A stretch of 64,000 nt of DNA, taken from a virus. Of the stretch, positions 4,794-59,409 are shown piece by piece (within the stretch, counting starts at the first letter, position 1; every line of letters starts with the position of its first letter). The DNA lies in IMG/VR virus record IMGVR_UViG_3300029240_000001. One strand, 5' to 3'. The notes below the pieces were generated by a model that saw nothing but the letters and a program-made list of their open reading frames with translations, ran no database searches and was not told the DNA's origin. Position numbers and translations under genes: made by a program.

Positions 4794-4850
4794 AGCCTCA
4801 TGCAAATGCGTATGATTTTTGCATGAGGCTATAATTTTGTATTGTGTCAA
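4794..4850 (-). promoter_or_regulatory. conserved box TTGACACAATACAAAATTATAG (minus strand) immediately followed by a 13-bp-stem hairpin
   Basis: Box core at 4831-4845 with TTGAC at 4846-4850; hairpin AGCCTCATGCAAA/TTTGCATGAGGCT at 4794-4830; no -10 hexamer at 17-nt spacing. Confidence 0.6.
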
Positions 4851-4860
4851 AATGGGCGAC

Positions 4861-5760
4861 CTACTGAATTTTATTCTTCCGTTTTTCATATGCACGTTTA
4901 TTTTGTAACGATTTCAGCTTTTTATCGTGTTTTTCTTTACATGTCTGGCACCTGCAAGTCTCATTATCAAATTCGCTTACCTCAACTACTTCACCGCAAT
5001 CAATGCACCATATTTGCAGTGGGGGAGAAGCTGCAAGAGAGCAGTCGGTACAGACGTTATCGCTTGCTTTGCGCTTCATTAGTTTACCACAGCGAGTGCA
5101 TCTCTTAAATTCTTCTTTGCCTTTCCAATTCAGATATACATACGCTAATTCTTGACAGTCAACTTCATTCAAACGAAGTGCTTCTTTTCCGTCTTTCTCT
5201 ATAAAATTGACCCACAAGCACTTTGTATCATTTCGCTTTGGGCAACTTATTAGTCCCTGAACGAGAATATAGTGCAGAATATATTCTCTATCATCTGCAG
5301 GAACGGATACTCTTGCAATTTTGCACAGCTCCGTAACAGTATATCTAACAAGACCACCTGTAAAATTAGACGATGTCCCATAAAAATCATTGATTTTTGC
5401 TTGCTGTTTTGCCATACATAGGAGTACAAACGTCATTTTTTCTGCTCTGATATTGTTTAAAGTTTCTATCTTTTTCAGCTCATTTTGAGTAATAACAATA
5501 TCATCTAACTCATAAAGTGCTCGCTTTTTTGCTCCTTTAATTGCGTTTGAAATAACATTTGAATAACTTGCTTCATCAAAATTAATTTGATGTTTTGTCA
5601 TCCATGCAACAGTGGAATTATAATTCTCGTTATCGTCTTTCCCCAATATTTGAGAATTATATCTAGTAATATAACCAATCTTCTTAATGGCCGACTTGAC
5701 GTCCTGATTTTTACCAAGTAACAGATTCATTGCATATTTTTTCTCATTCAATACTATCAT
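4861..5760 (-). CDS. hypothetical protein with C-terminal multi-CxxC zinc-ribbon region
   Basis: Start moved to MIVLNEKKY (GGTGGTG SD 6 nt upstream), overlapping the upstream stop; ends in TAG followed by the promoter box. Confidence 0.6.
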   Translation of the reverse strand: MIVLNEKKYAMNLLLGKNQDVKSAIKKIGYITRYNSQILGKDDNENYNSTVAWMTKHQINFDEASYSNVISNAIKGAKKRALYELDDIVITQNELKKIETLNNIRAEKMTFVLLCMAKQQAKINDFYGTSSNFTGGLVRYTVTELCKIARVSVPADDREYILHYILVQGLISCPKRNDTKCLWVNFIEKDGKEALRLNEVDCQELAYVYLNWKGKEEFKRCTRCGKLMKRKASDNVCTDCSLAASPPLQIWCIDCGEVVEVSEFDNETCRCQTCKEKHDKKLKSLQNKRAYEKRKNKIQ

Positions 5761-8629
5761 GTTCATCACCACCAAATTCTTTAGTATACAAGGAAAATGT
5801 TTTACCACAGAATTCTATGTCACCATTTTCATCTTTGATTGGAAATTGCATTTTATTTCCACTATTTCTTAATACATTTTTAAAAATTTGTTCGCCAGCA
5901 ACATCCCAAGCAAAAGATTTATTCTTACTAGACGTATAACAAACATCGACAACAATATTAGCGAGTACTTCCTTATTCTCACACACAAAAGCGCATTCTT
6001 CAGAAAATGTATCCTTAAATTGAGACATTACAAGGTCTCTTTCTTCTTTGCCAACATCATTTTTCTTAACACCTTTTAAAAAGACTTGGATATTGCTGTT
6101 ATACTCTTCATACAATGCTTGTACCGCATCAAATTCTTCCTGAGAATATTCCACATCGCTCTTTAAAATAGAAGCATCAAAATCCACGTTTGGCAGCACA
6201 TCTGTCGTCTTAAACTCGTCCTCAATCTTCCAACAAATTCTGTTCATTGTGCCGGGAGCTCTACTAACAGGAAGATATTTTTCATAATTATAGATAAATG
6301 TTTCTTCTTCGTCAGTCAAGTATTCAGATGTACACAAATCTTCTAAGGTTTTGCCGAACCTTATTTTACAATTTGATCTTACAGATTTCATGTATTTATC
6401 AAGTTCTGATTTTAACTGAGAATACCTATAAATAAAAAACCATGGCTTTATATTTGCTGCTATTCTCGTATCAATTTCTTTATCATGCAATATTTCAGGC
6501 GTGTCGCCTGACTTTGGCTTGTGCATTCTTGTCTCTAGCCATTCTTTTGGCACTGGCCTAGCAACAACCCCCTTAATGCGATCGATGGCATTTTGTTGAT
6601 AATTCATCATTGTGTTGATTCTATCAGTTAGTCGCCTATATTCTTCGCTATCTGGCTCAAACTTCTCTCTCAAAGAAATCATATTTGTTGCTTTGTTAGT
6701 TACACTTCCAATAGAATCTCCAAAGCCATTAATGTCTGAAGTAATAAAATCTTCTTCTACTGGAACCTTCTTTGGCATTTTATCTTGCACACACATTAAT
6801 GTTGGCTTGTATTCAAACGCCTCAATAAGCACATGTGTATCACTTGTGAAGAAACTATCAGAATCGTAGTCAGCGCCGTTGCATCTGATAGCAGTAGTGT
6901 CCCAACTGTTAAGAATACAGCAAGTTTTGATATATCTATACCATTTTCTCATCTCTTGATTGGCAACAACATTAAGCTTACAAACATTTTCAATTGAAGT
7001 CATTGGTGCACGGAAGGCGACAATCTCATTGACATTTTTATCAATCCAAAAGCGATGATAGCATTCCCCTGCATGTAACAAGCCTGTAATATCTAACCCA
7101 AACATGCTCTGTAATAGTGAATATGGGTCATTTCCTATAATTGCATAATCTCCTTCAACATCTAGAACCCCTATTTTTGCAGTTTTAATGCGTTTTTGGA
7201 TCATCCTACTAACCTTAGAACGCACATAAGGGTCTTTGATTAGCTCTGTATTTGCCATAATTGCTTTGCACATGGGCTCCATATGCTCAACATTATTTTC
7301 ATCAAGCCCAGTCCCGCACATATAAAGAATTAACTTTCTCCAATCCAAGCCAAGACATTCTTTGATTTTTGTCACCGTTGGTGCAACCAACTCATCAATT
7401 TGCTCGTCTGTGAATTTGAAATCTTGCAAATACTGATAATTTGTTGTATGAACATTTCGCAGCTCACGAGGAGCACTCTTGGCTATGCAAAAATCATATT
7501 CATTCTCTTTACAATTGCGAACATAATCTTCACATCCTGCGTAAGAATCCCATAGCTTTAACATAGAAGTTGTCAGAATTAAATCTGCATCCCTTACGTC
7601 CCTTTTATCTCCCCACGCATCAGTTATTTCATACGTGTGTGCCACTTCTTCAGCGAACTGAACAAAAGGCACCGTGAATACCATGCCCTTTAAAAATGCG
7701 CATCTGGTATTATATCCAGAGAGCGGTTCAGTACCTTCTCCCAATAATTCTGCCCACTTGCCACTCATTTCTGGAGAAATAAAACCCATGCCATCAGAAA
7801 CATTATAATCAATCATTTCTTCGTGTGGCTCGCTTACACTTGGCCAATCAGGATTTTTTTCATTCCCAGTATCTTTAACTATTCTTACAGGGTAGTTAAA
7901 ATGCGTTTCTGCATCTTTTACTACAATGATACGTGGCCATGGTCTTTTCTCGTCAGTAAATGACCCTACTGTGATACTAGCGGAGCACTGCAGCGCAAAA
8001 TATGCAGACAACTTTGCTGGAATAAACTTGTAATTGAGCTCCATCCCATTATAAGTTTTTACTGGCTCTAAAAGATTGTTATTCTCATCAACTTTTGGCC
8101 CGAGATAGCGCCCATTATTAATACGACTCATAATCTCGTCATGCAAGTTTTCGTTGATAAACATAATTGTGCTCTTTTTAATAGAACCTGCGGTTCCAAG
8201 TAAGCGAACATAAGTTACGGTTTGTGGCTCATTGCCGTCATCATAATCAATAGTAGCCTTAAATTTGTTCTTGCATACATATTTGTAATCTCCCGGAGAG
8301 TCCATAACAAGCATTACATAATCTTGCTGAAACTGCGTTTGATACAAATTATTGTACAATCTACGGATTTGCGCCTTATTTTCTGGCGTATTGTCCAATT
8401 TCTTCGTTTTTTGAATAGCTTCTTTAATTTTAGAAGCTGTTTTGTCATCTTCCTCTTTGTGTTGCAGCTCTGTCAACCATCTTAGCACTTGAGAAGAGCC
8501 CAAACTAACAACCATTTGCGGCTGCTTTCTGATTTCATTCAATTTTAGGGTTAAATGCCAATTGTGCTTTGCCAAGTAGCCACTATGAATTTTTAGTACA
8601 TAAGTTTGATTCTTTTGCTGTTTTGCCAA
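5744..8629 (-). CDS. RdRP-family / YonO-like two-barrel polymerase candidate (single-subunit RNA polymerase)
   Basis: 961 aa, TTG start after GGTGGTGA; SDGMGFIS (nt 7775-7798) and FRAPMTS...CNGADYDSDSFF (DxDxD, nt 6857-6880) match hallmark blocks of the cellular RdRP/QDE-1 family. Confidence 0.6.
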   Translation of the reverse strand: MAKQQKNQTYVLKIHSGYLAKHNWHLTLKLNEIRKQPQMVVSLGSSQVLRWLTELQHKEEDDKTASKIKEAIQKTKKLDNTPENKAQIRRLYNNLYQTQFQQDYVMLVMDSPGDYKYVCKNKFKATIDYDDGNEPQTVTYVRLLGTAGSIKKSTIMFINENLHDEIMSRINNGRYLGPKVDENNNLLEPVKTYNGMELNYKFIPAKLSAYFALQCSASITVGSFTDEKRPWPRIIVVKDAETHFNYPVRIVKDTGNEKNPDWPSVSEPHEEMIDYNVSDGMGFISPEMSGKWAELLGEGTEPLSGYNTRCAFLKGMVFTVPFVQFAEEVAHTYEITDAWGDKRDVRDADLILTTSMLKLWDSYAGCEDYVRNCKENEYDFCIAKSAPRELRNVHTTNYQYLQDFKFTDEQIDELVAPTVTKIKECLGLDWRKLILYMCGTGLDENNVEHMEPMCKAIMANTELIKDPYVRSKVSRMIQKRIKTAKIGVLDVEGDYAIIGNDPYSLLQSMFGLDITGLLHAGECYHRFWIDKNVNEIVAFRAPMTSIENVCKLNVVANQEMRKWYRYIKTCCILNSWDTTAIRCNGADYDSDSFFTSDTHVLIEAFEYKPTLMCVQDKMPKKVPVEEDFITSDINGFGDSIGSVTNKATNMISLREKFEPDSEEYRRLTDRINTMMNYQQNAIDRIKGVVARPVPKEWLETRMHKPKSGDTPEILHDKEIDTRIAANIKPWFFIYRYSQLKSELDKYMKSVRSNCKIRFGKTLEDLCTSEYLTDEEETFIYNYEKYLPVSRAPGTMNRICWKIEDEFKTTDVLPNVDFDASILKSDVEYSQEEFDAVQALYEEYNSNIQVFLKGVKKNDVGKEERDLVMSQFKDTFSEECAFVCENKEVLANIVVDVCYTSSKNKSFAWDVAGEQIFKNVLRNSGNKMQFPIKDENGDIEFCGKTFSLYTKEFGGDEHDSIE

Positions 8630-8650
8630 TAAATATCACCACCTACGACA

Positions 8651-59307: not shown

Positions 59308-59348
59308 TGTATTGCATAGAAAAACACAATAGTATATCAAAAAAATAT

Positions 59349-59375
59349 GGCTCCTAGGCAACTGGGAGCCTTTTT
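59349..59375 (+). terminator. intrinsic terminator
   Basis: GGCTCC..GGAGCC stem followed by TTTTT. Confidence 0.75.
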
Positions 59376-59380
59376 GTTAC

Positions 59381-59409
59381 TTGACAATACAAAATTATTG
59401 TGATATAGT
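59381..59409 (+). promoter_or_regulatory. TG-extended sigmaA-type promoter TTGACA-N17-TATAGT with the box as spacer
   Basis: TTGACA at 59381-59386, box at 59384-59398, TATAGT at 59404-59409. Confidence 0.75.

Follow-up and report, generated by a model that had tools for sequence, protein, structure and literature searches.

A short asymmetric box recurs about 27 times in a 64,000-nt stretch of viral DNA taken from the IMG/VR record IMGVR_UViG_3300029240_000001 (the whole stretch is called the window below), at promoters and between genes. We believe that this box is the 17-bp asymmetric operator of the phage's own master lysogeny repressor, a protein of the MrpR/SroF type encoded at 36416-37336 of the same window, and that it is the counterpart of SPBRE, the repeated operator of phage SPβ. 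We put the probability of this reading at roughly 0.78; most likely, the window box adds a new case to the system described for that Bacillus phage. The evidence consists of the motif statistics, the geometry of the box relative to σA promoters, the identity and fold of the repressor homologue, the conservation of the box in related phages and its co-occurrence with MrpR.

The repeated box and its positions at promoters

An earlier note on this DNA, made from the letters alone, had described about 27 copies of a 15-nt box, intergenic in all but one case and pointing toward the downstream gene in all but one case. The repeat is real. The 15-mer ACARTACAAAATTAT has 36 matches in the window at two or fewer mismatches, compared to 1.38 expected from shuffled sequences, and 25 copies at no more than one mismatch. 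When these 25 copies were aligned with their flanks, the conserved block came to 17 nt, ACA[A/G]TACAAAATTAT[A/T]G (that is, ACARTACAAAATTAT[A/T]G), and the repeat gained a few members. G occupies position 17 in 19 of the 25 copies, though positions 16-17 were outside the search pattern, and the information content is at background directly on either side of the 17-mer. For the 17-mer, 30 matches were found at two or fewer mismatches against 0.19 expected, with a shuffle maximum of 2. The box is asymmetric, without dyad symmetry, and has an orientation. After masking of the boxes, no further repeated word was prominent in the window, including any second motif that might serve as a polymerase promoter.

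Genes lie on the minus strand left of ~16 kb and on the plus strand to the right, a change that coincides with the GC skew switch, and 24 of the 25 box copies are co-oriented with local transcription (p≈1.5e-6). About 24 of the 25 are non-coding, in a window that is ~89% covered by open reading frames (ORFs; p<1e-15). The bias toward intergenic, co-oriented positions in the earlier description was thereby confirmed with one exception on each side: the copy at 51928..51944 (plus strand, one mismatch) lies within or at the end of a small ORF and is the sole one not clearly intergenic, and the copy at 36359 (17-mer at 36357..36373, minus strand) is inverted.

Thirteen of the 17 best σA-type promoter matches in the window have a box at a fixed offset, and an independent scan gave the same list. 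In seven promoters, all on the plus strand, the box makes up the 17-nt spacer together with the 'ACA' of TTGACA: 30790-30818 (box 30795..30811, register shifted by 2 nt), 34576-34604 (34579..34595), 37770-37798 (a degenerate copy, 37773..37787), 44939-44967 (a degenerate copy, 44942..44958), 51751-51779 (51754..51770), 56427-56455 of the primase gene (56430..56446) and 59381-59409 of a RecJ-like gene (59384..59400). The offset of these boxes is -31 in six promoters and -29 in one. Five of the seven (30790, 34576, 51751, 56427 and 59381) had already been picked out in the earlier note as perfect TTGACA-N17-TATAAT promoters with the box as spacer, which it called class i, and these were borne out; those at 37770 and 44939 were added, together with the inverted copy in the promoter at 36350.

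In five promoters, the box starts at +8 to +13. On the minus strand, the promoter of the YonO-like polymerase gene (TTGACA-N16-TATAAT, 8682-8709) has a box at about +11 (8649..8665). On the plus strand, the promoter at 37770 carries, besides the spacer copy, a second box at about +11 (37815..37831), and boxes follow the promoters 44510-44538 (44557..44573, about +13), 45046-45074 (45088..45104, about +8) and 50258-50285 (50300..50316, about +9, abutting the Shine-Dalgarno (SD) sequence of a cell-wall hydrolase gene). The same five promoters had been named earlier as having a box just 3' of them, correctly so, and one more was found: the leftward promoter 15384-15412 has a box at offset -1 (15363..15379, minus strand), which begins 4 nt past the -10 hexamer and so covers the start site. 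The remaining promoter is that of the mrpR-like gene (36350-36378, plus strand, TTGACA-N17-TACAAT), the spacer of which is formed by the inverted box, at offset -25. Four of the 17 promoters are without a box; three are inside genes, one of them antisense, and the fourth, 44428-44456, is the upstream one of a tandem, so placed that its transcript still crosses the box at 44557. Among the strong σA promoters of the window that are credible, none is without a box. The tandem, at 44428-44538, consists of two near-identical perfect σA promoters 82 nt apart (TTGACAAACAG...TATAAT), with that single box downstream.

The positions of the box at promoters, over the -35 and the spacer, at +8 to +13, and inverted in the promoter of the repressor gene itself, are operator positions. 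The inverted copy is predicted to be an autoregulatory operator.

An MrpR-type repressor gene and comparison with SPβ

The proposed reader of the box is a 306-aa protein, an integrase-fold repressor of the MrpR/YopR/SroF type by Pfam, PDB and fold matches, whose gene lies at 36416..37336 on the plus strand. The protein matches the Pfam domains MrpR_N_CB (43.1 bits, cut-off 27) and MrpR_C_cat (27.2 bits, cut-off 27), shows sequence matches to the PDB chains of YopR/MrpR/SroF with E values of 1e-11 to 6e-13, and is 26% identical to SPβ YopR over 160 residues (E=3e-14). A tblastn search of the window with SPβ YopR gave no match, and the homologue surfaced with Pfam profiles only. Its AlphaFold2 (AF2) model (predicted local distance difference test, pLDDT, 87) has the two-domain tyrosine-recombinase fold. 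The top seven Foldseek matches of the model, including 9rd5 (SroF-DNA), 9rgl, 8a0a, 8bj6 and 8bpz (E 1e-13 to 2e-10), are the SroF-DNA complex, the SroF-Sar complex, MrpR and YopR; true recombinases follow at E≥1e-4, about seven or more orders of magnitude behind in E value. Among the 120 homologues listed of 149, MrpR_C_cat was present in all and both domains in nearly all. No sigma factor or helix-turn-helix (HTH) regulator was found among 20 other window ORFs scanned.

MrpR, the master repressor of SPβ, has the fold of a tyrosine recombinase and has lost recombinase function, with Arg-I replaced by V137/S138 (PMC10516654). The catalytic Arg-I is also replaced in the 306-aa protein, where G141-I142-S143 aligned to G136-V137-S138 of MrpR (PMC10516654 Table 3), and D149 aligned to E144 of MrpR; this comparison covers the first catalytic position and the acidic residue, as the C-terminal residues aligned unreliably.

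In SPβ, SPBRE is the repeated element at early promoters and the operator of MrpR (also YopR or SroF), to which binding was shown by chromatin affinity precipitation sequencing (ChAP-seq) and electrophoretic mobility shift assay (EMSA) and repression by reporter fusions (PMC10516654). Our own derivation of SPBRE from the genome of SPβ gave (A)CAAATACAAA[A/T]AATATGTATA, i.e. (A)CAAATACAAAWAATATGTATA. Its 12 copies fall exactly at the ten loci published as bound by MrpR, and each points toward the downstream gene. Five copies, at yonP, yorE, yorM, yorZ and yosX, take the form TAGACA-N17-TATAAT, with SPBRE as the -35 'ACA' plus spacer, which is the class i design of the window. Those at yopV and yonX-2 start just past the -10, and those at yopM and yopV run into TATAGGAGG, as in class ii of the earlier note, whose members end in TATAG(G) shortly before an SD sequence. 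The same three placements, -35 'ACA' plus spacer, just past the -10, and abutting TATAGGAGG, are shared by the window box.

The two elements are also partly alike in sequence, and alike in the genes they precede. Both are asymmetric AT-rich repeats co-oriented with the downstream gene, and they share the core CAA(A)TACAAA, which appears as CAAATACAAA in SPBRE and as ACAATACAAAA in the window box. The box 5' part ACAA-TACAAAA agrees with the SPBRE 5' half ACAAATACAAAA at 11 of 12 positions with one gap, while the 3' halves differ; both elements can end in TATAG(GAGG), and the box of phage phi3T is different again. A difference between the SPβ and phi3T box sequences is on record (bioRxiv 10.1101/2025.11.27.690993). 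Copies stand upstream of the yonO operon and of the yorE/F replication operon in both phages: P_yonP of SPβ drives yonP-yonO, and the promoter of the window YonO-like gene has its box at +11. In both, the homologous repressor gene follows an integrase gene (yopR after yopP in SPβ). The same placements and core in SPβ and in the window thus amount to a shared layout, and not only a general theme.

The systems differ in several respects. The window repressor is only ~24-26% identical to the SPβ and phi3T proteins, and the conserved block is 17 bp compared to ~22-26 bp. The window box is about 3 times denser, with ~27 copies in 55 kb against 12 in the 134 kb of SPβ, about half of the window copies are promoter-less, and relatives of the window phage have copies in the structural operon and in a group I intron. 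YopQ/SroE or arbitrium genes were not seen in the window. The hosts are gut Clostridia here and Bacillus for SPβ.

The gene order around the repressor gene follows the same plan. The tyrosine integrase gene directly 5' of mrpR (35369..36343, plus strand; Pfam Phage_integrase, E=2.6e-36) is the counterpart of SPβ YopP/SroD, and mrpR precedes a replication module of the YorF/YorG/YorH/YorI type, in conserved synteny. The promoter 34576-34604 heads an operon that comprises ORFs of 81 and 160 aa, the integrase gene and mrpR, and relative L138 has the same design. Directly 3' of mrpR, an 83-aa ORF (37492-37743) is preceded by the promoter 37401-37429, 11 nt before the -35 of which stands a plus-strand box (37373..37389) with a 17-mer invariant in relatives. 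The spacer of this promoter contains a LexA (Cheo)-like box, CGAACATATGTTTT, at 37405..37418 (plus strand), the sole perfect Cheo-type match in the window, and in 4 of 6 lineages GAAC/AAAC-N4-GTT aligned at this position. The sroF gene of SPβ and phi3T is directly followed by that of a small antirepressor under LexA control, Sar/YopT (bioRxiv 10.1101/2025.11.27.690993). The LexA-like box at 37405 may be an SOS input to the switch, and the 83-aa protein, whose model is confidently folded and mostly β (pLDDT 91), could be a non-homologous SOS-controlled antirepressor.

Conservation in relatives and other possible readers

The relatives of the window phage are IMG/VR contigs of ~100-160 kb. A near-identity DNA search against annotated phages gave no match, and species-level genome matches came only from a Faecalimonas metagenome-assembled genome (MAG) and an uncultured Clostridium MAG, both of the human gut. 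The inverted box in the mrpR promoter and a direct box past the mrpR terminator are conserved in 22 relatives, in which MrpR is 82-100% identical, and a related inverted variant of the promoter box is present in L140. In lineages whose MrpR is 44-57% identical, the core ACARTACAAAATTA is retained throughout, and so are promoters in which the box forms the spacer; the integrase-MrpR-YorF-YorH synteny is conserved as well. In a lineage at 41% MrpR identity (L143), a crude de novo search gave no motif, L143 being too AT-rich for that search. Enterocloster phage CB473P1 (100 kb) and phage c-st, which have the closest YonO homologues and no MrpR homologue, were searched by the same criterion; CB473P1 and the c-st YonO region showed 0 boxes compared to 28 in the window, and no other dominant repeat. 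Box conservation alongside divergent MrpR, and its absence from MrpR-less YonO phages, indicate that the box tracks MrpR and not YonO.

In 29 portal-anchored loci of relatives, the coding strand carries all 127 copies. Of these, 64 come after the portal gene, where the structural operon holds ~2.4 boxes per 10 kb. Promoter-less boxes between structural genes are conserved in position down to 65% portal identity. The supposition that boxes are confined to early genes, as in SPβ, was therefore wrong. In L149, a group I intron (RF00028, 76 bits) at 14628-16509 splits a structural gene, both halves of which match phrog_4088; within the intron lies the gene for a GIY-YIG homing endonuclease, and the box is the spacer of the TTGACA-N16-TATAAT promoter of that gene. 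A similar second insertion was seen at ~20758 in L155 and at ~18949 in L160.

Several of these results weigh against the box being an MrpR operator. The link between the box and MrpR is drawn from homology and geometry, the 17-bp box is shorter than the 24-26 bp of SroF, and its similarity to SPBRE is partial. Over 44-100% MrpR identity, no co-variation of box and repressor was seen beyond small 3' variants (TTATWG vs TTAAT), and hence no sign of specificity coupling. About half of the copies have no recognisable σA promoter, and seven boxes lie in the 17-30.8 kb stretch with no strong σA promoter, the nearest candidate being a moderate TTGACT-N17-TATATT at ~16651 in a non-coding divergent region. 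The structural operon of relatives has boxes and that of SPβ has none, an arrangement which would also fit internal promoters. Finally, the 83-aa ORF, tried as a Sar-like antirepressor, gave no sequence match and no significant YopT/Sar fold match, so the SOS input is a hint and not evidence of a homologous antirepressor.

The earlier note had seen in the box a phage-specific promoter or factor box, in two promoter contexts, that defines a second temporal class, and had named a polymerase as the candidate reader. That the box is such a factor box tied to transcription, in distinct promoter contexts, held up; the reader and the mode of action were probably wrong, as the operator positions and the MrpR homologue suggest. 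The polymerase in question is a 961-aa protein (5744..8629, minus strand; phrog_8308/25339), a distant homologue of the YonO family with 24% identity to SPβ YonO and 37% to the homologue of Clostridium phage c-st. Residues ~585-591 read G-A-D-Y-D-S-D at the apparent metal-binding aspartate motif. YonO and cellular RNA polymerases have Gly (DxDGD) where this protein seems to have Ser. The likeness of AATAC...TATAG to T7-type promoters, on which the earlier suggestion drew, is unsupported: a T7-like polymerase did not turn up, and the YonO family is described as consisting of distant relatives of multi-subunit RNA polymerases unrelated to single-subunit ones (PMC5467207).

We consider it very unlikely that the box, at least in its promoter-less copies, is the promoter of this polymerase, with a start near TATAG. 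Such a role would suit, above all, the ~14 boxes that stand immediately before a ribosome-binding site without a σA promoter, the seven in the 17-30.8 kb stretch, and the co-oriented copies inside the structural operon of relatives. It would also suit the box at 4831, which heads a gene string running to terminase and portal, at about the place expected for the YonO promoter from synteny with SPβ: like yonO in SPβ, the window homologue is upstream of and co-directional with the genes leading to terminase and portal. YonO of SPβ, however, transcribes late genes from one start site upstream of yonK (PMC5467207), whereas the box is multi-copy and built into σA promoters. PMC5467207 gives no YonO promoter sequence to compare with the box; we located the start region by the published primer sequences at ~60330-60573 of SPBc2, and it contains no SPBRE and only trivial similarity to the box. 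Seven boxes built exactly into σA promoters, and one inverted in the repressor promoter, are natural for an operator and have no explanation if the box is a promoter. The σA promoter of the polymerase gene itself has a box, two boxes are directly followed by terminator-like hairpins, phages with the closest YonO homologues have neither the box nor another repeated motif, and the homologous SPβ element is bound by MrpR (PMC10516654).

Another DNA-binding protein could read the box, as repressor or activator: the integrase paralogue (the SroD/YopP counterpart), an unannotated phage regulator or a host factor. MrpR binding to the box is itself deduced, ~70 small window ORFs are without annotation, many of them outside the scans, the box core does not co-vary with MrpR divergence, and the integrase gene adjoins mrpR in all lineages. 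Brady et al. are said to have found in 2023 that SPβ repression needs SroD and SroE besides SroF. The arm and core sites of integrases, on the other hand, cluster at attP and are not spread over >55 kb at promoters. Spacer positions and +8 to +13 are those of a repressor and not of an activator. The box co-occurs with MrpR and is missing from MrpR-less relatives whose host, Enterocloster, is a related one; this speaks against a host factor. The sole homologous system tested by experiment assigns the repeat to MrpR/SroF (PMC10516654). We thus regard a different reader as unlikely.

A role at the RNA level, as a 5'-untranslated-region signal by the ribosome-binding site for a translational repressor or enhancer or a processing enzyme (RegA/RegB-like), appears extremely unlikely to us. 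Most copies are transcribed in leaders, 0-25 nt before the SD and all in sense orientation, and the boxes at +8 to +13 would fall at mRNA 5' ends. Against this, the seven spacer copies are phased exactly with the -35 and -10 and lie outside the transcripts of those promoters, a conserved copy in the mrpR promoter is inverted, the box comes without a conserved structure (the tested hairpin is unconserved), there was no Rfam family match, and the SPβ counterpart is bound as DNA (PMC10516654).

Promoter-less copies, proposed action and genome context

Roughly 14 of the ~27 good copies lack a recognisable σA promoter and sit between a stop codon and the next ribosome-binding site, all of them co-oriented with transcription and some sharing one base with the upstream stop codon. 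On the minus strand, a perfect 17-mer (4829..4845) without a σA promoter nearby is found 15 nt past the stop of a 315-aa ORF, and a promoter-less copy at 13699..13715 is tight between stop codon and SD (TTATAGGAGGG). Promoter-less copies on the plus strand are located at 18007..18023 (5 nt past the stop of a 236-aa ORF, with a small G+C-rich hairpin next), 20076..20092 (one mismatch in the 15-mer; start codon 21 nt further on), 20324..20340 (one mismatch in the 15-mer; intergenic), 23758..23774 (perfect; abutting the SD directly), 28669..28685 (directly past a stop codon, hairpin next), 31522..31538 (its first base being the last base of the upstream stop codon), 38093..38109 (perfect; before the YorF-like gene heading the replication module) and 53303..53319 (one mismatch; starting on the last base of the upstream stop codon, before an RNA ligase gene). 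Further plus-strand copies are a perfect one at 25588..25604, with a terminator-like hairpin before and the next SD after it, a degenerate one with two mismatches at 27376..27392, which abuts the SD, and one with a single mismatch at 39242..39258, before a GIY-YIG homing-endonuclease gene.

Hairpins, which had been noted directly after several boxes, do exist 3' of those at 4831, 18007 and 28669. The one at 4794, after box 4831 and the sole one compared in relatives, is unconserved there, its arms being mutated without compensation or deleted; the hairpins following some boxes appear incidental. The box at 4829..4845 heads a string of ClpP-like, PhoH, HU-like and exonuclease genes, which in relatives continues into terminase and portal. 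At this site the 17-mer is invariant in nine divergent copies and the upstream flank is unrelated, which places a mosaic junction exactly at the box edge. Homology among relatives L018, L037, L084 and L089-L092 begins exactly at the box 5' edge (window 4845, minus strand). Dispersed identical 17-mers may be recombination points between gene modules.

With the box taken as the operator of the MrpR-type repressor, we infer that the 306-aa protein binds it and represses. SroF binds as a monomer, encircling an asymmetric 26-bp box of which it reads 24 bp (bioRxiv 10.1101/2025.11.27.690993). By analogy, one repressor monomer would wrap one box, and monomer binding would explain a site without dyad symmetry and with orientation. 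In the seven promoters with spacer boxes, bound repressor would occlude σA-RNA polymerase; in the six with boxes at -1 or +8 to +13, it would block promoter escape or early elongation; and the inverted box would serve autoregulation of mrpR. The ~14 promoter-less copies would act as extra silencing sites or as roadblocks against read-through, like the stoperators of mycobacteriophage L5, and would thereby stop elongation.

The repressor of L5 (Cluster A), gp71, is monomeric and binds asymmetric sites, some in promoters and most in short intergenic gaps, which follow the direction of transcription in both genome arms (PMC9283540, PMC6550527). At stoperators it blocks elongation in an orientation-dependent manner (PMC9283540). 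The window system resembles that of L5 in having an asymmetric site (~13-17 bp) in 20-30 or more copies per genome, in strict orientation, with some sites overlapping the promoter -35 and most in short intergenic gaps, and in having sites in the replication and structural arms and at the repressor gene's own promoter. It differs in host phylum, in site sequence and in the repressor, which in L5 has an HTH and a Stoperator domain and in the window candidate an integrase fold; elongation block and its dependence on orientation are demonstrated for L5 and proposed for the window box. With repressors of unrelated fold, the two systems could share a mechanism only by convergence, and the window system is not a member of the L5 family. 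To judge from this likeness, the promoter-less oriented copies probably give extra stoperator-like silencing. More tentatively, and at somewhat less than even odds, an SPβ-type monomeric repressor of integrase fold may have independently evolved L5-like silencing in a large family of gut-Clostridia phages with ~100-160 kb of DNA. The oriented 17-bp sites, dozens of them, would then combine promoter operators with orientation-dependent elongation blocks, acting across early and structural operons and even at homing-endonuclease promoters inside group I introns.

Gene content and order in the window follow SPβ, with a YonJ-like exonuclease and a YonV homologue, and the replication module comprises YorF-like, AAA_24/YorG, YorH, DnaB-like helicase, primase and RecJ genes. 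The GIY-YIG/NUMOD3 homing-endonuclease gene (39277-40287) is an insertion that separates the YorF-like gene from the AAA_24 gene and has a box of its own at 39242; some relatives, such as L141, share it, and others, such as L138, lack it. An array of ~9-11 tRNA genes (Leu x2, Tyr, Ile x2, Thr, Phe, Met, Gly and others) occupies 46290-50035, downstream of the promoters 44428-45074 with their boxes, with a skipping-rope RNA (RF02924, 78.8 bits) at 48151-48230 within it. Adjoining the array, 52200-56406 encodes a class-V aminotransferase, an RNA ligase (phrog_968), an RlaP-like nucleotidyltransferase and a kinase/HD protein; this RNA-repair-type cluster may be a module that repairs tRNAs attacked by anticodon nucleases of the host. 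An ORF-poor divergent region (15420-17290) separates the leftward from the rightward gene block; in it, (TA)n-rich blocks (15340-15365, 15580-15660 and 15855-15900) alternate with G+C-rich islands and GACTTGAAAAAGTC palindromes are repeated at ~16740-16800. The moderate rightward σA-like promoter at ~16651 is without a box. The region gave no Rfam family match; an origin, a regulatory region or one of non-coding RNA may lie here.

If the box is the operator of the MrpR-type repressor, SPβ repression, which combines a repressor derived from an integrase with a repeated asymmetric operator, would extend from Bacillus to a large uncultured family of gut-Clostridia phages, for which the box would supply an operator sequence and a regulon map. 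The 17-mer marks early σA promoters and gene boundaries and helps to annotate this phage family, and it could predict immunity groups. The case also calls for caution against taking every repeated phage motif for the promoter of a phage polymerase. Finally, these phages would offer a natural test case of whether a monomeric integrase-fold repressor can silence by roadblock besides promoter occlusion, in convergence with mycobacteriophage stoperators.

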